DNA of 32,000 nt, from assembly GCF_034931625.1 (NCBI RefSeq), contig NZ_JAYGGY010000091.1, forward strand, positions 20,647-52,646, read 5' to 3'. The DNA is from Anabaena cylindrica UHCC 0172. GTDB taxonomy: Bacteria; Cyanobacteriota; Cyanobacteriia; Cyanobacteriales; Nostocaceae. The notes under the pieces are model-generated. The model saw nothing but the letters and a program-made list of their open reading frames with translations, was not told the origin of the DNA and made no database searches. Positions 807 to 10,907 of the stretch are shown one piece after another (the first letter of the stretch is position 1; each line of letters starts with the position of its first letter). Both the position numbers and the translations under genes were made by a program.

Positions 807-1859
807 CTATAGATTGGGGAAGAGTAATTGGGCGATATATTCTGCATTTCTTTTTTCTCGCCAAATCCAATGATTATCCTGACCTTTTTCTCGAACATGA
901 ATAATTGCCGCCTCAATTACTTGGTCTAAATCATCTAAACTAGAATAGGATGAACCTATAGAAACTGGCCAGGTAATTTGATGCTTTATCACAGGATAAT
1001 TTGGTGCGATAATATAACACCCACAAGATCCTGCGTCACTTATCACCCCACTAGCTCGATAATAATAACGATCTTGATCAAAATCAGTAACTAAAATATC
1101 TAATTGTTGTAATGCTTGCAAATAATCTTGGTCTTTCGTGGTATCAATAAAAGTAATATCTGAGCAATTTTCTAGATATTTAGGTTTTTGATTAATAGGT
1201 GTACCAATAACTAATTCTAGTTGCTGGGAATGTTGCAATACATAATATCTGACTTTTTCCAAAATCTTATTAATAGGCTTATCTTCACGAATAATTCCTA
1301 TAATACCAATTTTAATTTTCTCATCTTGTTTCAATCTTTTTCCTGGTGTTAATTTCGGAGTAGTTTCACTGATTATAGGATGGGGAATAACAATTTTAGA
1401 AGATGCGGTAAATTTAAACTTATCGCTGATATAATCGTCATCTAATTCTAAAAGAACTACTTTGAATTTAGGATTAAATTCTAGAAATTTTTTAAAATAA
1501 ATAAATCCCCAATATTTTATTTTATTTTCTTGAGCAAATAATTGATTACCATGAATACCTAAAAATACTTTTTTTCCTGTTGACACCAACATAGGTAACA
1601 GAGCTAAAAGATGTTGATTATAAATTTCCATTACATAAATACTATCAACATCTTGAAGAGATAAAGCTTGTAATCCCATTGAAAAATGGCGATATTCACG
1701 CCGTAATTGTAATCCCACTGAATAACTAGGAATTGCTTGAGTGAATTTTTTAAACCATTCAGGAATCGGTCTTTCTATGGTAACAAAGCCGATTTTATGA
1801 TTAGATAGGTGGTGATTTATTAGTAAAAGCTCTCTCAGTCCTGGGTGAAATAGTTGCAT
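807..1859 (-). CDS. Hypothetical protein, weakly glycosyltransferase-like (GT-B style two-lobe pattern)
   Basis: 350-aa uninterrupted ORF with ATG start, convergent with the permease. The C-terminal lobe (IGIIGIIRE.., ASGVISDAGSCGCYIIAPNYPV) loosely resembles GT-B nucleotide-sugar binding lobes. No strong named motif. Confidence 0.45.
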   Translation of the reverse strand: MQLFHPGLRELLLINHHLSNHKIGFVTIERPIPEWFKKFTQAIPSYSVGLQLRREYRHFSMGLQALSLQDVDSIYVMEIYNQHLLALLPMLVSTGKKVFLGIHGNQLFAQENKIKYWGFIYFKKFLEFNPKFKVVLLELDDDYISDKFKFTASSKIVIPHPIISETTPKLTPGKRLKQDEKIKIGIIGIIREDKPINKILEKVRYYVLQHSQQLELVIGTPINQKPKYLENCSDITFIDTTKDQDYLQALQQLDILVTDFDQDRYYYRASGVISDAGSCGCYIIAPNYPVIKHQITWPVSIGSSYSSLDDLDQVIEAAIIHVREKGQDNHWIWREKRNAEYIAQLLFPNL

Positions 1860-1897
1860 AGTTGATTAAATGTATATTTAATAATAAGTATATCGGC

Positions 1898-2207
1898 AAA
1901 ATTAATTGGGTGCGGCTCTTTTAGGAAGAAAAGATATTACATTCGTATTACACGGATCTAACCCAACTATCTCTACATTGTTGGTTTCTAACCTAAAAAT
2001 AATAAGGGTGCGATCGCATAAAAATCAAACAAAAAACCTCTTTTCACCGTGTAACACAATACTACAAAAAAGATGTAATCTTGATTTTGAGACCTGAGCG
2101 AACCATTTTTGGAATTCCTAAAACTTAAAATTCCTACCCTGTATAAACTATGGGCTTTATGCCAGGATTAAAGTTGTCTTTTCAAAAGAGCCGCACCCAA
2201 ATTAATT
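1898..2207. repeat. MITE-like element bounded by about 24-bp imperfect inverted repeats
   Basis: aaattaattgggtgcggctctttt (1898-1921) versus aaaagagccgcacccaaattaatt (2184-2207). The 16-nt core is perfectly complementary. The interior has no credible ORF and carries a HIP1 site. Confidence 0.5.
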
Positions 2208-2513
2208 AGAATATTCCGAGTAAAAAAATGCCCAATTGTCATTGCGAATGGGACAAAGCGGAATGAAGCAATCTCTGGTTTTGGAGCATTTATTATTTGG
2301 AACACTCTTAAAGGATGTTTAAAAAGTCTTTGGTGATGTATCAAAAATCGTTTGCGCCCTAAATCCCTCTTAAAAAGAGGGAATACGGGTATCAAATACT
2401 ACATAAGGAAAATTTTTAAACATCCTCTTATACAAGGTTTATTCTTGCCAGATATGAGCTTGGCTCATTTTGATTTACTATATATAAGTAACAATACTAC
2501 CATATATCAGTCA

Positions 2514-3704
2514 ATGATAATATCTCAACCTACAATCACTGAGGAAAATCAGGAAATCTCTGTCTCAGCTAGAGTAGCGTTAGACAATCAAAGAAATCAA
2601 GCTCCCGACACTTTGTGGTTTAAATTTCCTTCGCACTATCGAAATTATGTCACTGATCGTTCTGATGGCTTTATAGTAGGTCTACTGCCTTCAGCTATGG
2701 CATTAGGAGAAAAGGTTATAGTTGAAGGGATAACATCACCCCGTCTTGCCTACGGACTGCGTGAATATCAGCAAATTCTCAATGCTTGGTGGCCTAAAAA
2801 ATTCAAGATTGTAGACATCCAATACGATCGCCTTCAAGAATCAAGTTCATGCGATTCTGAGTATGGGGCAGGATCTGCATTTTCCGGTGGAGTGGATTCC
2901 TTTTATACCTTGTGGAAGCATCTGCCAGATCATGAAGAACTAGAGAAATACAGAATAACCCATTGTTTGATGATTAATGGTTTTGACAAGGATATAGATT
3001 TAGATGATACAGGTGCTTTTCGCCAATTATATGATATTTACGAGCCAATGATGCAGAAGCTAGGAATAACTCTGCTAAGGTCACGCACTAACCTACAGAA
3101 ATTTAGACTAGCGTCCATAAATTCCTCCGATCTTCACCTTACATTTGGTGCGCCAATTACAGCTTCTACCCTGGTGTTGGGCAATTTATTTTCCCGTTTT
3201 TACATACCAGCCTCTCATAGTTATGCCTATGAAACCTTAATTCCTATGGGGGCGCACCCTATTCTAGATCACCTACTAAGCACAGAAACTTTGCAGTTGA
3301 TCCATGATGGAGCAAATGCTTCGCGTACAGAAAAAATAGCCACTATTTCCCAGTGGAATGAAACCTATTCAAGATTGCGTGTCTGTTTGCAGAAGGCTAA
3401 ATATGATGAAAATACAGGGCAGATTGAAAATTGCGGTAATTGTATAAAATGTATTAATACCATGCTTTCTCTAGATATATTGGATGTTCTACCTATGTAT
3501 GCTACATTTCCCCATTCTTTAAAAAGTCAACAGATATGGAAAGCTAGAAATTTGACAAAATTCCGCTATAAGGAACATCTAAGCTTTGCTCATCAACAAA
3601 GTCGAAAAGATCGTATATTTGACTTATACTGTTATTTTTTACAAAACGATGTAATTTATCCTATCTATGCCAAAATTCGTAATTTATTCAGAGTATTTAG
3701 TTAA
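2514..3704 (+). CDS. PP-loop ATP-pyrophosphatase-like protein with C-terminal Cys cluster (paralogue 1), family unassigned
   Basis: FSGGVDS PP-loop motif and a C-terminal LRVC..x..NCGNCIKC cluster. Full-length collinear similarity to 4881-6068. ATG 2514 gives 396 aa, matching the 395-aa paralogue. The TTG 2352 and ATG 2454 extensions run into repeat DNA. Confidence 0.7.
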   Translation: MIISQPTITEENQEISVSARVALDNQRNQAPDTLWFKFPSHYRNYVTDRSDGFIVGLLPSAMALGEKVIVEGITSPRLAYGLREYQQILNAWWPKKFKIVDIQYDRLQESSSCDSEYGAGSAFSGGVDSFYTLWKHLPDHEELEKYRITHCLMINGFDKDIDLDDTGAFRQLYDIYEPMMQKLGITLLRSRTNLQKFRLASINSSDLHLTFGAPITASTLVLGNLFSRFYIPASHSYAYETLIPMGAHPILDHLLSTETLQLIHDGANASRTEKIATISQWNETYSRLRVCLQKAKYDENTGQIENCGNCIKCINTMLSLDILDVLPMYATFPHSLKSQQIWKARNLTKFRYKEHLSFAHQQSRKDRIFDLYCYFLQNDVIYPIYAKIRNLFRVFS

Positions 3705-3784
3705 TTACATATATAAGGAAAGTTGATAGATATTTGAATTCTTTTTTTAATCTATTTAGTTGACTAAAAACACCTGTTTAAGCT

Positions 3785-4888
3785 ATGAAAAATACCACAC
3801 CACAGTTAATTAAAGAAGAACTACACAAAGCTTTGGGGCAATTGGATAGTTTTGAATCATGTGCATTACTGAACTATCCAGATTATCTAAATTTGGGAGA
3901 TCATTTGATCTGGTTAGGGACTGTAATGTACCTGACTGATGTACTAAAAACAAAAATTAAATACGCCTCCAGCATTGCAGATTTTTCTCCGACAGTAATG
4001 GAAGAAAAAATTGGTAAAGCTCCCATATTCCTTCAAGGAGGAGGCAATTTAGGAGATATTTGGCGTGTTGATCAGCAGTTTCGAGAGCAGATTATTGCTA
4101 AGTATCAAGATCGCCCAGTTATTATTCTTCCACAAAGTGTTTTCTTTTCCAAGCCAAATAATCTCCAAAAAACAGCAAATATCTTTAATTCTCATCCTAA
4201 TTTAACTATATTTGTCCGTGATGATCGTAGCTATCAAATTGCACAAGAATCTTTTCATAAATGCCGAGTAATTAAATCCCCGGATATGGCTTTTCAATTA
4301 CTGAATTTACCAGGTGTATCTACCAATTGCAAATCAAAATCATCAATTCTCTTTCTTTGTAGAAAAGACAAAGAATTAAATCAGGAATTTTCGGTAAATA
4401 ATGTTAAAATTCCTAATTTAGTGGTTGAAGATTGGGTTTCCTTTCCATGGGTATTAGGACTTCGTTCTCAAATGGTAAAACGTTTTGCAACACAAATGTT
4501 TAGGGAAGTTTGGCAAAGGGGTTTAATGACTCCATTGGAGTGGATATATCGACAAAAATGGCAATCTTCTTACTCTAATGCTGATAAATTCAACCAGATG
4601 TATAACCCTTTTATACATAAGCTGTTATGGAATTTTATGTCTAGTGGAATTTATCAATTTCAGCAACATCAACTAGTGATTACAAATCGGTTGCATGGAC
4701 ATATTCTTTGTATCCTTTTAGGCATTCCTCATGTTTTTTTACCTAATGCTTATTACAAGAATGAATCTTTCTATGAAGCATGGACAAAAGATATTCCATT
4801 TTGTAGATTTGTTAAAAACACTACCCAAATTGAATCGGCGGTACAAGAACTATTAGAGATAAGTAAATCAGGTAAGTTAAATGTCTAA
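3785..4888 (+). CDS. Polysaccharide pyruvyl transferase family protein (PF04230-like; WcaK/CsaB type)
   Basis: NLGDHLIW and GGGNLGD glycine/aspartate motifs, and C-terminal ITNRLHGHILCILLGIPHVFL (the R-x-H motif typical of the family). 367 aa. Confidence 0.75.
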   Translation: MKNTTPQLIKEELHKALGQLDSFESCALLNYPDYLNLGDHLIWLGTVMYLTDVLKTKIKYASSIADFSPTVMEEKIGKAPIFLQGGGNLGDIWRVDQQFREQIIAKYQDRPVIILPQSVFFSKPNNLQKTANIFNSHPNLTIFVRDDRSYQIAQESFHKCRVIKSPDMAFQLLNLPGVSTNCKSKSSILFLCRKDKELNQEFSVNNVKIPNLVVEDWVSFPWVLGLRSQMVKRFATQMFREVWQRGLMTPLEWIYRQKWQSSYSNADKFNQMYNPFIHKLLWNFMSSGIYQFQQHQLVITNRLHGHILCILLGIPHVFLPNAYYKNESFYEAWTKDIPFCRFVKNTTQIESAVQELLEISKSGKLNV

Positions 4889-6068
4889 AACCCATCTGTG
4901 GCAGGAAGAAATTACAGAATCTGAAGGCTCAATTACTATCAGCATTACTATTGAAGATCATCAACAAACTCGCACTCGTCTTTGGTATAGTCTTCCTTCT
5001 GAATATAGAGAATTAGTTACCAATAGTTGTGATCCTTTCGTTTTAGCAACTGTTTTAATGGCAATGAACCAGTCAACTAATTTAATTGTACATGGGGAAG
5101 TTTCTCCATCTTTGCTGCAAAATTTGACAGAATTTCAAGCAGCTTGGAATTCTTGGCTGCCCAATAATTACAGCTTAATTAACATTATTGCAGACGTTGA
5201 AAAAGAACAAATTAATAATCAATCGTCAGACAAAGTAATTGCGGCATTTTCTGGTGGAGTTGACAGTTGTTTTACAATGTTCCGTCATCGTACAGGCAGT
5301 TGTGGAAGATGGCAACGTAATTTAACAGCAGGTTTAATGGTGCATGGTTTTGATATTCCCTTAAACCAGAAAGAAATATTTGACAGTGCTGCCCAAAGAT
5401 CCAAGATTATGCTATCCAGTCTAGGTGTAGAATTGATTCCCTTAGCTACTAATTTCCGCCAAGTTATCAAAGTTAATTGGGAAGAAACATACGCGACCGC
5501 AGTTGCCTCTTGTCTGTTATTATTACAGCGTGGCTTTCAAGCAGGTTTAATTCCCAGTGCATATCCTTATAACGAACTTCATTTTCCCTGTGGTTCTAAT
5601 CCAATAACAGATAATTTACTATCAAGTTATACGTTTCAATCTATTCATGATGGTGCAGCTTTTGGTCGGTTTGCAAAAATCAGAGAAATTTCTAATTGGC
5701 CAGAAGCTTTACAAAATTTGAGAGTTTGTTGGCAAGGTTCTCAAAAAGATCGTAACTGTTGTCGTTGTGAAAAGTGTATTCGGACTATTCTTAATTTTCG
5801 GATTTTAGGGATAGATTTACCATCTTGTTTTGAACAAGATGTTACAGATAATCAGATATTAAACCTGAAGTTACCGTCAGGGGGACCACTTAATTCGCTA
5901 AGAATTACTCTAAAAGCTGCAAAAAAAGCTGGTATTTCTGAATCCTGGGTAAATGCAACAGAAATATGTATCAAGCGTAGTAAAATAGAAAATACATTAA
6001 AAAATAATTTATCTCCTACTATCAAAAAGAGATTAATTCAACTCAGAACACTAATAGCTAAAAAATAA
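4881..6068 (+). CDS. PP-loop ATP-pyrophosphatase-like protein with C-terminal Cys cluster (paralogue 2), family unassigned
   Basis: FSGGVDS motif and LRVC..x..NCCRCEKC cluster. The ATG overlaps the pyruvyl-transferase stop by 8 nt (4881-4888), implying translational coupling. Confidence 0.75.
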   Translation: MSKTHLWQEEITESEGSITISITIEDHQQTRTRLWYSLPSEYRELVTNSCDPFVLATVLMAMNQSTNLIVHGEVSPSLLQNLTEFQAAWNSWLPNNYSLINIIADVEKEQINNQSSDKVIAAFSGGVDSCFTMFRHRTGSCGRWQRNLTAGLMVHGFDIPLNQKEIFDSAAQRSKIMLSSLGVELIPLATNFRQVIKVNWEETYATAVASCLLLLQRGFQAGLIPSAYPYNELHFPCGSNPITDNLLSSYTFQSIHDGAAFGRFAKIREISNWPEALQNLRVCWQGSQKDRNCCRCEKCIRTILNFRILGIDLPSCFEQDVTDNQILNLKLPSGGPLNSLRITLKAAKKAGISESWVNATEICIKRSKIENTLKNNLSPTIKKRLIQLRTLIAKK

Positions 6069-6134
6069 TTTATTCACATAATATAAATTATCTCAAAATT
6101 GTATCAAATTACAAATAACAAAGGCTTTTAAGTA

Positions 6135-6890
6135 ATGTTTGAAGATTACAAAGATATATTTAACCAAAGAGCTATATATTATCATCAAGCGATGGTAGAT
6201 TTTCCATCTGCTAGAGAAGAGGAATTTTATCATGTACTTAACATAGCTGATATCTCCCAGGGAAATATAATTTGCGATATTCCAGCAGGTGGTGGCTATT
6301 TAAATCATTTTGTTCAATATGAAACCAAAATAATTTCTGTAGAAACTTCAACCGAGTTTCTCAGATTTTATGAAGATAAAGGTATTCATGAAACCATTAT
6401 TTGCAATAGTATGAGTGAAATACCTTTAGCATCGACAAGTATTGATAGAGTAATTAGCTTGGCAGCTTTGCACCATGTAAGTAACAAAAAAGCTTTTTAT
6501 CAAGAGTCATTGCGTTTACTCAAATACAAAGGTATACTCTGTATTGCTGATGTTTTTACAGGAACAGGTGTAGCTGATTTTTTAAATATCTTTGTTGACA
6601 AATATAATCCGATGGGACATAAAGGAGATTTTTTAAATAAAACTACTAAAGCTGACTTAGAGTCTCTTAGTTTTCAAGTTTTATCCGCTGCACAGATTGG
6701 GTTTAACTGGAAATTTGATTCTCTAGAAGATATGGTTCGCTTTTGCAAATTATTATTTTATATTAACGATGCTAATGATAGACAAATATTAGCAGGAATA
6801 CAAAAGTATTTAGGTTATAAAGTAGTAGATAATCAATATTGTTTGCCATGGGAATTGTTTTTCTTAAAAGCTAGGAAAATAAGAGGTTAA
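6135..6890 (+). CDS. Class I SAM-dependent methyltransferase
   Basis: Motif I variant ICDIPAGGGYL and a Methyltransf_11-like DRVISLAALHHV. 251 aa, same strand as the preceding three genes. Confidence 0.7.
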   Translation: MFEDYKDIFNQRAIYYHQAMVDFPSAREEEFYHVLNIADISQGNIICDIPAGGGYLNHFVQYETKIISVETSTEFLRFYEDKGIHETIICNSMSEIPLASTSIDRVISLAALHHVSNKKAFYQESLRLLKYKGILCIADVFTGTGVADFLNIFVDKYNPMGHKGDFLNKTTKADLESLSFQVLSAAQIGFNWKFDSLEDMVRFCKLLFYINDANDRQILAGIQKYLGYKVVDNQYCLPWELFFLKARKIRG

Positions 6891-6940
6891 TATAATTTTT
6901 ATTTATACAAAAATGTTCATGTTGATTGCCTATATGTTTT

Positions 6941-7879
6941 TTATTTTTTAGCTAATTGTTGCCAATGATAAAAAGGACTAAGAGCAAGATTTATAAGTAG
7001 TTCCATTTCTCCAATAGCAACAACATCTGTTTTTAAAGTGTTTCTGTTTTTAATATAAAAATAAATGGCTTTTCGGAAATCATTAACCATATATATAAGA
7101 CTAATTATAGGTTGTTGCCAAGGTTGATAATTCAACATTCTATAATAATATCGACATATTCCATTTTGACGAAAAAATCTTCTTAAATATTCCTTCTCAA
7201 ACCTTGATTTAGGAATCAAATGATCTAATTCCATTTCAGCATTAAACCATAGTTGCCACTTTTTTTGCCAAATATAATTTAACATTTCTAAATCTTCATT
7301 TGTTTGTGGCAATAAAGGATGTTCAGGAATACTTTCTAACCAAGCTTGATTACGAATGACTATTCCTGCTCCTGGAGGAAACATTCTTTTTTTAGTTGAC
7401 TGATATTTTTCGTTATAGCAATAAGTTTTTTTGCCTTCTATGATTGCAAAAAAGCGAGCTATTCTTTCAAATCCCGGAGGGGGTTCAACATCAAATTTGC
7501 CATGAATTTGTCCCCCATAAGCACCAGCATTTGCATGAGTTTGACCAAATTTATAGGCCTCTGTTACCCAGTTAGGATAGGGTAAATTATCATCATCCAG
7601 AAATCCGATTAAATCACTTTTCGCTTCTCGGATAGCGCATATGCGAGCAAAAGCAAGTCCTTGTTTAGCTTCAAAGCAATATTTAAGAGGATAAATTTCA
7701 CTCCAATTAGATAGATGCTTTTGTACTACTTTGGCAGTATTATCAGTGCTATTATTGTCAATAATCAGAATTTCCCAGGAAATCTCCTCTGTCCCAACTT
7801 GCGATCGCAATTTCTCTAGAACATCTAATATGCGGTTTTCTCCGTTATAGGTACAGATAGCCACTGTAAAATCAACCAT
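6941..7879 (-). CDS. Family 2 glycosyltransferase
   Basis: N-terminal FTVAICTYNGENRI, IIDNNSTDNT and the FLDDDN (DxD) motif. 312 aa. Confidence 0.85.
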   Translation of the reverse strand: MVDFTVAICTYNGENRILDVLEKLRSQVGTEEISWEILIIDNNSTDNTAKVVQKHLSNWSEIYPLKYCFEAKQGLAFARICAIREAKSDLIGFLDDDNLPYPNWVTEAYKFGQTHANAGAYGGQIHGKFDVEPPPGFERIARFFAIIEGKKTYCYNEKYQSTKKRMFPPGAGIVIRNQAWLESIPEHPLLPQTNEDLEMLNYIWQKKWQLWFNAEMELDHLIPKSRFEKEYLRRFFRQNGICRYYYRMLNYQPWQQPIISLIYMVNDFRKAIYFYIKNRNTLKTDVVAIGEMELLINLALSPFYHWQQLAKK

Positions 7880-8080: not shown

Positions 8081-8113
8081 AGTCAGGAGAAAGAAGGAGT
8101 CAGGAGTCAGGAG
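8081..8113. repeat. Degenerate STRR heptamer array (caggagt family)
   Basis: agtcaggagaaagaaggagtcaggagtcaggag. The same heptamer occurs at 15660-15694 and 30991-31018. Confidence 0.7.
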
Positions 8114-8244
8114 AAAAAAGGAAGAAGGAAGAATATTTTCTCTTCTGTTGCCTATTCAGCGATGAAAGGGCTAAGATGTACCTCATAAAAGCGGTTTCCG
8201 CTGTATCAAATATTCTGTATCCTGAATCCTCACTGTCATGGTAG

Positions 8245-9195
8245 TTATTTTTGATTAAATTTTTTCAGAAAAATCCAGAAAGATTGAGCTTTTTTTCCAG
8301 GTAAAACAATTCCTAATATACTTTTTATAACTGCAATTAAAGTTATTTTCCTTCTATTCCAAGCGATAGCCGGCTGATATTTAAAAGTTTTTCCCAGTAA
8401 CTTAAGAGCTACTAAGCTTTTTTGCGGTTTTGGATAACCTTCTAGAGATTTTAGAGTCAGAAACATATATAAATTTGCTAAACTCTGGTTTTTTAAAGAC
8501 TGTAAATCTTGAGGTGCTTGACAAAAGGCTTTGTTGATAATTTTTAAGCCTGCTTCCTCCATTTTATTTATATTGGTGGACATTGAGCTATTTGATACTC
8601 TATATAAAATTTGTGGTGTAGGGACACAGACAAAAGGATAATCAGCAGCTAATCGCAGATACATATCCCAATCAGCGGAACGTTCTAAAGATTCATCAAA
8701 GCCTCCTAAATCTCTTAAAGCTTGAGTCAAGAATAAACCATTAGATCCATTTTCTAAAAAATTAGTGAATAATAGCTTTGGTAAAGCATAACCATTAACA
8801 GTAATATATAAACCTGAACGCAAAAATTGACTAGATTCATCAATATAATCAGTCCAACTATAAGCAACAGCAGCCGTAGAATTTTTAATTAAGGCATTTA
8901 ATTGAGCTTCTAGTTTATCAGGAGTCCATATATCATCGGCATCCATAAAAGAAATGTATTTTCTATTAGCAATTTTTAATCCACGATTTCGACTACTTGC
9001 TAGTCCAGCATTGGGATAAGAAAATATTTTTATTCTGATATCTTTGATCTGATCAATTATGTCTAAAGTTGTGTCTTTTGACCCATCATTGATCACAATG
9101 ATTTCAAAATCAGTAAATGTCTGTTTGAGAATAGATTGAATAGTTTCTTGAATTGTTTTTTCGCCATTATAAACTGGGATGACAACAGAAATCAT
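8245..9195 (-). CDS. Family 2 glycosyltransferase
   Basis: MISVVIPVYNGEKTI, VINDGSKDTT and the FMDADD (DxD) motif. ATG 9195 is preferred over the upstream GTG 9207 because GT2 proteins normally begin a few residues before the VVIPxYN strand. Confidence 0.85.
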   Translation of the reverse strand: MISVVIPVYNGEKTIQETIQSILKQTFTDFEIIVINDGSKDTTLDIIDQIKDIRIKIFSYPNAGLASSRNRGLKIANRKYISFMDADDIWTPDKLEAQLNALIKNSTAAVAYSWTDYIDESSQFLRSGLYITVNGYALPKLLFTNFLENGSNGLFLTQALRDLGGFDESLERSADWDMYLRLAADYPFVCVPTPQILYRVSNSSMSTNINKMEEAGLKIINKAFCQAPQDLQSLKNQSLANLYMFLTLKSLEGYPKPQKSLVALKLLGKTFKYQPAIAWNRRKITLIAVIKSILGIVLPGKKAQSFWIFLKKFNQK

Positions 9196-9248
9196 AAATT
9201 TAAGCACTCTTTTCTAAACTAAAGCATCTCTATATTTTTTATAAAACG

Positions 9249-9384
9249 TAAGGTAAGGATTCAGGATAGAGAATACTCTAAGTCAGGAGAATAAAGACTT
9301 TTCGAGTCAAATTTAATGATTTTGCTAAAATCTCGCTTCTCTCTATATCTTCATTTCATAAGCATTCTGAATCCTGAATTCTTA
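9249..9384 (-). repeat. Dispersed element of about 135 nt, same family as 28195-28323
   Basis: The reverse complement of 9249-9384 aligns along its whole length with 28195-28323 (aagaattcagga.tcagaatgctta...aaatcat.aaa.ttgactcgaaaag.ctttatt...gagtattctcta.cctg.at.cttac), roughly 80 percent identical by eye. Confidence 0.7.
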
Positions 9385-9429
9385 CTATAAAACTAAGTTT
9401 TTTAAGCGCAGAGTACAGGTGTAGCCTAC

Positions 9430-9656
9430 AGAAATCAAAATTTTCCTCTGTCCCAACTAGTAGTCTGTCAAGAACTAATTGACGGGTAAATAAATTTTCT
9501 TTCTTCCTTCTCCCTTCTTCCTATCCCTACGGGACGCTACGCGAACGCGGTTCGTTTCTTCTTTATCCGTCAAAATATATTTGACAGACTACTAGCGATC
9601 GCAGATGCGGTTTTCTCCTTTATAGTTACAGATAGCCACTGTAGAATCAACCAGAA
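9430..9656 (-). pseudogene. Relic of the 5' end of a GT2 gene (paralogous to 6941-7879), disrupted by a MITE
   Basis: The reverse complement of 9604-9654 reads LVDSTVAICNYKGENRI, versus MVDFTVAICTYNGENRI in the intact gene, and the start codon is lost (CTG). Similarity resumes at ttcctctgtcccaa (9443-9456) on the other side of the 9457-9595 insertion. Confidence 0.75.
9457..9595. mobile_element. 139-bp MITE with perfect 15-bp terminal inverted repeats
   Basis: ctagtagtctgtcaa (9457-9471) and ttgacagactactag (9581-9595) are exact reverse complements, with subterminal ttgacgg/ccgtcaa. The element interrupts sequence that is contiguous in the paralogous copy at 7786-7830. Possible CTAG target duplication. 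Confidence 0.75.
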
Positions 9657-10007: not shown

Positions 10008-10907
10008 ATGCTGAAAATTAAAAACTTAAACAAGTCTTACGGCAGCAGAAAAGTTCTCCAGGACTTGCAATTACATATTGAATCAGGGGAAATTTATGGC
10101 TTATTAGGTGCAAATGGAGCGGGTAAAACTACAACAATCAATATTATTTGTAATCTCCTCAACACAGACAGCGGTGATGTTATAATTAATAATCAATCTG
10201 TTTCAGAAGCGACCAAAAAATTAATTGGGATTGCACCTCAAGAAAATCTGTTGTATAAGACTCTATCTTGTGAAGAAAATCTCAATTTTTTTGCTGCTAT
10301 TTATGGTTTAGATCGTCAAACACGCCAGAAACAAGTAAAAGCAACTCTCACGGCTGTTAACTTATTAGATAGGGCTAAAAGTCCTGTAGAAACTCTTAGT
10401 GGTGGAATGCAAAGACGGTTAAATATTGCTGTGGCTTTAGTACATCAGCCGCAATTAGTAATTCTTGATGAACCGACTACAGGCTTAGATATTGAAGCAA
10501 GATATGAAATCTGGGAATTAATTCGCCAACTTAAAAATCAGGGCATGACGATTTTATTAACAACACATTTATTAGATGAAGCTGAAAGACTGTGTAATAG
10601 AATTGGGATTTTGAAAAATGGTAGAATTTTAGCTGAGGGGAGTTTATCTGAGTTAAAAACCTCAATTCCGGCTCAAGAAATTATCGTGTTACAAACTACA
10701 CAAGAAGAAGAAGCGATCGCACTAGCTGATAAATATGGCTTTACAACCCGGCGTTATGGGAGCGATTTAGCTTTTTGGTTGCCAGAAACGCTAGAATTAA
10801 AAGAAATCATTGCCAAGTTTGACAGTATACCCATTGATTCAATTTCACGTCAGCCTGTGCGGTTAGAGCATATTTATGTAGAAGTAACTCAAGGTAATGA
10901 GTATTGA
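10008..10907 (+). CDS. ABC transporter ATP-binding protein (ABC-2/DrrA-like with C-terminal extension)
   Basis: Walker A GANGAGKTT, signature LSGGMQRRL, Walker B LVILDEPTTGLD and H-loop TTHLLDE. 299 aa. Confidence 0.9.
   Translation: MLKIKNLNKSYGSRKVLQDLQLHIESGEIYGLLGANGAGKTTTINIICNLLNTDSGDVIINNQSVSEATKKLIGIAPQENLLYKTLSCEENLNFFAAIYGLDRQTRQKQVKATLTAVNLLDRAKSPVETLSGGMQRRLNIAVALVHQPQLVILDEPTTGLDIEARYEIWELIRQLKNQGMTILLTTHLLDEAERLCNRIGILKNGRILAEGSLSELKTSIPAQEIIVLQTTQEEEAIALADKYGFTTRRYGSDLAFWLPETLELKEIIAKFDSIPIDSISRQPVRLEHIYVEVTQGNEY

Follow-up and report, generated by a model that had tools for sequence, protein, structure and literature searches.

The 32,000-nucleotide (nt) stretch of Anabaena cylindrica UHCC 0172 analyzed here, hereafter the window, carries four genes in a row on its forward strand. 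They encode, in order, a protein that we call A, a polysaccharide pyruvyl transferase (PyrT), a second protein, B, related to A, and a class-I S-adenosylmethionine (SAM) methyltransferase (table 1). The subject of the present analysis is the protein family to which A and B belong and its association with PyrT genes. The open reading frames of both match the source proteins at 100%, NCBI labels the two as hypothetical, and the ATG assigned to A is consistent with the MII... N-termini of its homologs. An initial annotation, made from the sequence without database searches, had described two collinear paralogs of about 395 amino acids (aa) at roughly 30% identity, separated by a PF04230 gene whose stop codon overlaps the start of B, with a SAM methyltransferase following on the same strand. 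This layout was confirmed throughout: A and B align collinearly in BLASTP over 338 aa (34% identity, E 3e-52), the predicted PyrT covers profile positions 1-278 of the 280 of PF04230, and the overlap between PyrT and B (ATGTCTAA) has the appearance of translational coupling. The possibility that this PyrT is a CsaB equivalog was rejected (35.9 bits vs the 213 needed).

Table 1. Positions of the genes and sequence features discussed in the text, in window coordinates except for the last row.
Feature	Position	Strand	Remarks
350-aa protein, divergent from the A-PyrT-B-methyltransferase genes	807-1859	-	Kept in the sister strain, 92% nucleotide identity
Strain-specific segment carrying A	1861-3784	.	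1.9 kb; replaces a 422-bp intergenic region of the sister genome (L001)
Paralog A (VB713_20020)	2514-3704	+	396 aa; QueC-like PP-loop member, clade without pyruvyl transferase link
PP-loop FSGGVDS of A	2880-2900	+	aa 123-129
Cys cluster of A	3384-3452	+	C291-x15-C307-x2-C310-x2-C313
Polysaccharide pyruvyl transferase (PyrT), PF04230	3785-4888	+	367 aa; 127.2 bits vs cut-off 25.3
PyrT stop/B start overlap, ATGTCTAA	4881-4888	+	8 nt; TAA 4886-4888, ATG 4881-4883
Paralog B (VB713_20030)	4881-6068	+	395 aa; QueC-like PP-loop member, PyrT/AsnB-like/hps-linked cyanobacterial clade
PP-loop FSGGVDS of B	5247-5267	+	aa 123-129
Cys cluster of B	5727-5777	+	C283-x9-C293-x2-C296-x2-C299; aligned by HMMER with QueC profile positions 182-201
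Class-I SAM methyltransferase	6135-6890	+	251 aa; Methyltransf_11, E 1.2e-11; starts 66 bp past B
HpsE-type GT2 glycosyltransferase (hormogonium polysaccharide)	6941-7879	-	Convergent with the operon; NF038302 EPS_HpsE
Second strain-specific segment, with GT2 gene	8082-9604	- (gene 8245-9207)	Sister genome (L001) has a tandem HpsE duplicate at that place
Second GT2 glycosyltransferase	8245-9207	-	PF10111 + PF00535; within strain-specific segment 8082-9604
AsnB-like genes in other genomes	L003 3949-5751, 8211-10004; L004 8196-10001; L005 7899-9698; also L009, L065, L006		Coordinates within the respective loci

Several sequence blocks are common to A and B, namely LW..P..Y...VT, G..SP.L, FSGGVDS, GFD (residues 156-158), HDGA and LRVC...NC..C.KC. 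All of these had been recognized in the initial annotation, and they prove invariant or nearly so when 34-40 family members are aligned. Residues S124, G125, G126 and D128 of the PP-loop are invariant in 40 sequences, one lysine is invariant in the family alignments of both 34 and 40 members, and the four cysteines of the C-terminal cluster do not vary in the alignment built on A or in that built on B. By sequence, both proteins thus possess a four-Cys site of the QueC type, corresponding to QueC profile positions 182-201. Membership of the PP-loop superfamily is further indicated by the strand-loop-helix around FSGGVDS in both predicted structures and by the profile alignment to GMP synthetase. 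The earlier reading of A and B as PP-loop enzymes with a QueC-like Cys site is therefore upheld by motifs, profile alignments and fold matches alike. In contrast, the N-terminal domain of about 170 aa proposed at the same time is too long. The stretch before the PP-loop measures about 120 aa, and its second half (residues ~76-120) aligns, in a profile comparison against PDB sequences, with the helix and strand that open the ATP-pyrophosphatase domain of GMP synthetase, so that the piece without assignment shrinks to ~75 aa. In the AlphaFold models this family-specific piece is beta-rich, and the C-terminus is formed by a helical extension of ~85-95 aa. Since inspection revealed no signal peptide or membrane segment in A or B, both should be cytoplasmic.

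The initial annotation could place the pair in no family that it could name, and profile searches lead to the same outcome. A, B and 34 diverse relatives all stay below the curated cut-offs of the Pfam and NCBIfam models, and no full-length match to a characterized family was obtained. Sub-threshold matches are confined to the PP-loop (LarE, GMP synthetase, NadE) or to the Cys motif (QueC, DUF6395); among the marginal matches of individual members are the PP-loop families LarE, QueC, GMP synthetase, NadE and QatC, with LarE the most frequent in NCBIfam. Against the QueC model PF06508, B reaches 9.5 bits where 22 are required and A gives no match, the best E-values over the 34 members being 0.0032 for PF06508 and 0.063 for TIGR00364. 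DUF6395 (PF19932), a family which is itself uncharacterized, yields sub-threshold matches in 18/34 members (best E 8.4e-5), but only the Cys-motif stretch aligns (profile ~26-66 of 174), at 15.9 vs a gathering threshold of 25. Asparagine synthase (PF00733) matches neither A nor B, and the same holds for all models in PADLOC. A search of PDB with the single sequences found nothing, and the corresponding profile search recovered only the PP-loops of GMP synthetases (E 0.018).

Structure predictions built on family alignments are confident for both proteins, with a mean predicted local distance difference test score (pLDDT) of 92.5 and a predicted template modeling score (pTM) of 0.89 for B, and values of 92.6 and 0.91 for A. 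When the full-length models were compared with PDB using Foldseek, no match was found at E <= 1e-3. The matches that make structural sense are partial, and all are to PP-loop proteins: the QueC-like Cap9 (prob 0.97 and 0.91, TM-target 0.62 and 0.59), YcfA, TilS, NcsA and GMP synthetase. Among predicted viral proteins, QueC ranks first (E 9.5e-5, prob 1.0), and ThiI, other QueC proteins and TilS come next; TM-target for QueC is 0.55-0.63. Acetyl-xylan esterases and flippases, which also appear in the top rows, were discarded as noise (TM < 0.15). A and B are accordingly members of a separate family within the PP-loop superfamily, in which a QueC-like core is combined with N- and C-terminal parts peculiar to the family. 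By analogy with QueC, the four-Cys site most likely holds a structural zinc.

Established PP-loop enzymes resemble the family in part. QueC (PF06508/TIGR00364) and its relatives Cap9, QatC and DpdC share with A and B the SGGxDS motif and the C-terminal four-Cys site, and they provide the best structural matches. Nevertheless, the family scores far below the QueC threshold, TM-query reaches only 0.3-0.4, and QueC is a single domain of ~220 aa, whereas A and B are almost twice as long. N-type ATP pyrophosphatases such as GMP synthetase, NAD synthetase, TilS and LarE have the PP-loop and its preceding helix in common with the family, yet only the ~75-residue nucleotide-binding core aligns, and their substrates and accessory domains are unrelated. 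AsnB-like enzymes lacking the Cys2 residue, of the beta-lactam synthetase and lasso-peptide cyclase type, also adenylate a carboxylate and form an amide, but they differ from A and B in domain layout and in belonging to PF00733. The literature searched describes neither the family nor a pyruvyl transferase that works with a PP-loop enzyme, it mentions no amidated pyruvate ketal, and the family is missing from the named hps genes (hpsA-U). The superfamily is known, as is its general chemistry; what the searchable literature and libraries do not describe is this family, how it is built and its systematic association with PyrT.

The family is large and widespread. An exhaustive profile search retrieved 9322 clusters at 50% identity with E <= 1e-3, 4285 of them with E <= 1e-30. 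Taking one genome per species, matches are found in Cyanobacteriota, Desulfobacterota, Chloroflexota, Planctomycetota, Acidobacteriota, Verrucomicrobiota (including metagenome-assembled genomes, MAGs, of Akkermansia), Actinomycetota (Streptomyces, Arthrobacter), Gemmatimonadota, Spirochaetota and others, as well as in Alpha- and Gammaproteobacteria (Azospirillum, Hyphomicrobium, Psychrobacter). In a neighbor-joining tree A and B fall into separate deep clades. The clade of B consists mostly of filamentous cyanobacteria (Okeania, Lyngbya, Oscillatoria, Potamolinea, Symploca, Kastovskya), that of A mostly of non-cyanobacterial sequences.

To characterize the genomic setting, we used 79 diverse loci, one per species, with crude gene calling aware of GC content at third codon positions and a PyrT hidden Markov model (HMM) iterated on the six-frame open reading frames of these loci. 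Neighbor counts are lower bounds, because this gene calling leaves gaps, and so are the figures for PyrT within 10 kb, because many contigs are short. A PyrT lies within 10 kb of a family gene in 33/79 loci. In 32 of these the distance is at most 3.6 kb, and in about 21-23 the two genes are adjacent, mostly on the same strand. As only one PyrT is found at 3-10 kb, the linkage decays steeply with distance. Among immediate neighbors identified by Pfam, PS_pyruv_trans ranks first (14/136), followed by GT2 (8) and Asn_synthase (3). The second shell comprises GT2, ABC_tran with Wzt_C, ABC2_membrane, Wzx flippases, GT4 and further PyrT genes. The general setting of the family is surface-polysaccharide assembly. 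A lack of conserved linkage to pyruvyl transferase or glycosyltransferase genes would have spoken against the module outlined in the initial annotation; the linkage is present across phyla and extends to gene fusions.

These fusions are independent support for the PyrT linkage. Family and PyrT domains are joined in P0263 (854 aa) and P0337 (1182 aa), a GT2-PyrT fusion of ~724 aa lies directly upstream of a family gene in four unrelated MAGs (L040, L042, L052, L078), and all three are united in a single GT2-PyrT-family protein of an Akkermansia MAG (L071). In the annotated exopolysaccharide (EPS) loci of Gloeothece verrucosa PCC 7822 and G. citriformis PCC 7424 a PyrT precedes the family gene, and on plasmid p3 of A. 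brasilense Sp7 the two form a stand-alone two-gene cassette. B is 51% identical to the family protein of PCC 7424, paralleling the 48% identity between the corresponding PyrTs. For 23 adjacent PyrT/family pairs, distances among the PyrTs correlate with those among the family proteins (r 0.51, Mantel 0/2000), a value to which shared organismal history contributes. PyrT and the family gene constitute a conserved cassette, whose range extends from cyanobacteria to Alphaproteobacteria, Acidobacteriota, Planctomycetota and Verrucomicrobiota; a GT2 glycosyltransferase often precedes it or is part of a fusion with it. The family is also found joined to a GNAT domain (P0281, 625 aa), to an O-methyltransferase (P0290, 592 aa) and to an ABC-transporter ATPase (P0384, 768 aa); in the last, the family domain is C-terminal to the ATPase, the place at which Wzt proteins carry a glycan-binding domain. 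The family domain is also tandemly duplicated within single proteins (P0242, P0247).

The cyanobacterial relatives of B add a further partner. In three B-clade genomes the gene order is ClpB, a variable set of GT2, PyrT, sulfotransferase or fucosyltransferase genes, an AsnB-like gene, the family gene, HtpG, L28, HpsA and HpsB; for L004, one of these genomes, NCBIfam models bear out the identity of the last two. In filamentous cyanobacteria, next to hpsA, an AsnB-like gene is the upstream partner of the B-clade family gene, with translational coupling between the two. Their products, which do match PF00733, are ~600 aa long, keep SGGLDS and start with MANF..., so that the Cys2 glutaminase nucleophile is missing; they resemble the glutamine-independent, amide-bond-forming relatives of AsnB. 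Two MAGs, one of Phycisphaerales and one of Luteitalea, contain a trio of PyrT, AsnB-like and family genes, the AsnB-like gene again being the coupled upstream partner; the window itself has no AsnB-like partner. The Cys-less AsnB-like protein and the family protein are predicted to make up an unstudied pair of adenylating enzymes. The conserved unit is PyrT plus a B-type family protein, often accompanied by a GT2 or a Cys-less AsnB-like protein.

We consider it likely that B is a PP-loop enzyme that tailors glycans and is coupled in function to their pyruvylation. As to its chemistry, we infer ATP use, substrate, nucleophile and order of steps by analogy. QueC converts a carboxylate into an amide and then a nitrile at the expense of ATP, and in QueC, NAD synthetase, asparagine synthetase and TilS alike a carboxylate or carbonyl is adenylated before attack by nitrogen. 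QueC-like chemistry, possibly as far as the nitrile, would be expected for the family by the same analogy. The chances are somewhat short of even that B activates a glycan carboxylate with ATP in the cytoplasm, likeliest that of a pyruvate ketal, and that amidation follows. The initial annotation had likewise suggested that the module could modify a pyruvylated or uronic sugar, for instance by amidating it, and adenylation of the pyruvyl carboxylate with subsequent amidation is still the simplest reading. A glycosyltransferase would add a sugar to the lipid-linked repeat unit, and PyrT would use phosphoenolpyruvate to place a 1-carboxyethylidene group (the pyruvate ketal) on this sugar at the cytoplasmic face. 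B would then adenylate the new carboxylate, converting ATP to acyl-AMP and pyrophosphate, and ammonia or another amine would displace AMP to leave, with ammonia, a neutral carboxamide. A second, ATP-dependent dehydration to the nitrile is a formal possibility suggested by QueC, and the methyltransferase might add a further decoration. The fusions of GT2, PyrT and family domains agree with a series of three successive reactions on the same residue. Because the HpsE glycosyltransferase adjoins the operon, the product in UHCC 0172 is probably a hormogonium or EPS-type polysaccharide. More tentatively, the reaction might represent an undescribed glycan modification, in which the ketal carboxylate on a lipid-linked sugar would become a carboxamide, a QueC-style nitrile or an amide to some other amine.

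Several observations weigh against a pyruvate-ketal substrate, or against its generality. In 46/79 loci the available DNA contains no PyrT, and the linkage figures come from crude gene calls and from a PyrT HMM iterated on the very same loci. No PyrT occurs in the sampled contexts of the A clade, and in Lyngbya the family gene is coupled to sulfotransferases and not to PyrT. With the A clade unlinked and so many loci devoid of PyrT, the ketal is not always the substrate of the family, and the coupling to Cys-less AsnB-like proteins, together with the Lyngbya case, leaves room for other carboxylates or for a two-enzyme reaction. The fold matches, moreover, are partial (TM-query 0.3-0.4) and none in PDB attains E 1e-3; an amidated or cyano pyruvate ketal was not found in the literature, including a dedicated review of glycan pyruvylation; and for every member the favored chemistry rests on analogy.

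These points lend themselves to an alternative scenario in which another glycan carboxylate, for instance that of a uronic acid, is activated and ligated to ammonia or an amino acid, PyrT merely tailoring the same repeat unit. One relative in the A clade is surrounded by amide-forming enzymes (CapK_C, ATP-grasp, FemAB-like and BKACE genes, together with GT4 and Wzx) and another by Mur_ligase, O-FucT, ABC-2 genes and GT2. Cyanobacterial members coupled to putative Cys-less amide synthetases, fusions with GNAT and methyltransferase domains, and the absence of a nearby PyrT from more than half of the loci could be accommodated in the same way. Yet PyrT is by far the most enriched neighbor and its frequency falls steeply with distance, and both the PyrT fusions and the stand-alone Azospirillum cassette are hard to square with unrelated target groups. 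For the family as a whole we consider this scenario rather unlikely, although it is plausible for members without PyrT and is the favored one for the A clade.

The comparison with a sister genome bears on the relation between A and B. In the complete genome of a sister A. cylindrica strain (L001), ~90% identical in nucleotide sequence over the region, the order is the 350-aa gene, PyrT, B, methyltransferase and HpsE, and A is missing. In blastn, synteny ends at window position 1860 and resumes at 3785, so that the A-PyrT-B arrangement is strain-specific. The proposal of the initial annotation that the two paralogs bracket PyrT as one module consequently holds for PyrT-B, which is conserved, but not for A, which is confined to this strain, belongs to the other clade and has relatives in PyrT-less sampled contexts. 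The closest of these, at 77% identity, stands alone, with putA on one side and a NUDIX gene on the other; other A-clade members lie beside nonribosomal peptide synthetase/polyketide synthase genes or are followed by a Methyltransf_11 gene (L089). A is a second family member of a different clade, independently acquired. Around it, no trace of a mobile element was detected beyond one imperfect inverted repeat of 34 nt (1899-1932 / 2174-2207; 79% complementary, arms 241 nt apart), and its strain-specific segment has no plasmid match. The repeat, which could be a small remnant resembling a miniature inverted-repeat transposable element, has no further copies in the window, where none would be expected by chance. 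With the second strain-specific segment, there are at least two points at which the glycan island exchanges cassettes.

The same data make it improbable that A and B form a heteromeric enzyme, an option raised in the initial annotation. PP-loop enzymes are often dimers, A and B stand on the same strand around a single PyrT, and a scan of 1700-7100 found no convincing terminator between them; furthermore, 2-4 family copies lie side by side in 13/79 loci. Such tandem arrays occur in Chloroflexota, Pseudomonadota, Phycisphaerales and Thermoanaerobaculia MAGs (L047 9896-14911; L075; L026; L062), and the copies of an array cluster together in the tree, which points to local duplication. In contrast, A and B belong to different deep clades, and both retain the catalytic-looking invariant residues, so that neither resembles a degenerate regulatory subunit. 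An obligate heteromer is unlikely given that A is missing from the sister genome, falls in a separate clade and has relatives in PyrT-less sampled contexts, including the solitary one. In the likeliest case, A is no obligate partner of B but has another carboxylate or substrate, on which it probably performs related chemistry.

Two further options concern the reaction itself, and we regard both as very improbable. Acetamidino-forming N-acetyl-sugar amidotransferases of the WbpG/PseA/WbuX type, a lead given in the initial annotation, are PP-loop enzymes of similar length (~380-400 aa) that tailor surface sugars and form C-N bonds with ATP, and they too work in a polysaccharide context. However, no match to their model TIGR03573 was found at E <= 1 for A, B or the 34 members; the gene partners are others, and genes for nonulosonic or diacetamido-uronic acids were not seen among the neighbors. 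Alternatively, the Cys cluster could bind an Fe-S cluster for sulfur insertion, as in thio-modification of the TtuA/NcsA type. NcsA and ThiI do appear among the fold matches, and LarE is the commonest marginal match in NCBIfam, but the invariant cysteines number four, not three, and HMMER aligns the C-x9-C-x2-C-x2-C pattern with the zinc site of QueC; sulfur-relay genes, in addition, were not observed among the neighbors. Finally, a nucleobase or defense role of the QueC/Cap9/QatC kind with no glycan link, which the nearest folds and one marginal QatC match might suggest, can be set aside as extremely improbable, given that PADLOC finds no match, that no que (queD, queE, folE), Qat or cyclic-oligonucleotide-based antiphage signaling system (CBASS; type IV partner genes were looked for in the window) genes lie nearby, and that neighbors (PyrT, GT2, AsnB-like, ABC, Wzx) and fusion partners alike are glycan enzymes.

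Of the remaining genes in the region, the HpsE-type gene passes the equivalog test of NF038302 over its full length (441 bits vs a cut-off of 300). The methyltransferase has a weak PADLOC match to mad2 (E 2e-7), limited to the SAM-binding region, which most likely reflects generic methyltransferase similarity and not a defense gene. For the 350-aa protein, searches of Pfam, NCBIfam, PADLOC and PDB sequences gave zero matches; it had been considered as the counterpart of a similarly placed 333-aa gene of Gloeothece PCC 7424, a candidate rejected because the two are not homologous. An ABC-2 permease gene (21-740) and an ABC ATPase gene (10008-10907), on the same strand, bracket the 9-kb island, an arrangement also present in the sister strain. 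In the scan of 1700-7100, promoter-like sites were fewer than in shuffled sequences.

Pyruvate ketals confer negative charge on bacterial surface polysaccharides, are bound by SLH-domain proteins and lectins, and act as immunodominant epitopes. If the proposed reaction is correct, an anionic decoration would become a neutral or conjugated one, and the derivatized ketal would alter the charge, metal binding, rheology and recognition of EPS, capsular polysaccharides and O-antigens. For enzymology, B and its relatives would then represent a new QueC-like PP-loop branch with a non-nucleobase substrate. All members encountered carry the source name "hypothetical protein", and for this reason the family deserves a Pfam/NCBIfam model of its own; the proposed function, if true, would account for "hypothetical" genes in thousands of glycan loci, among them those of Akkermansia, Azospirillum, Psychrobacter and most filamentous cyanobacteria. 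The position of family genes beside hpsA or hpsE makes them a new candidate for the incompletely defined hormogonium-polysaccharide pathway. With the cassette present in thousands of genomes and more than ten phyla, the reaction would, if confirmed, be a common but hitherto hidden level of surface-polysaccharide chemistry, which might extend to cyanobacterial gliding slime.

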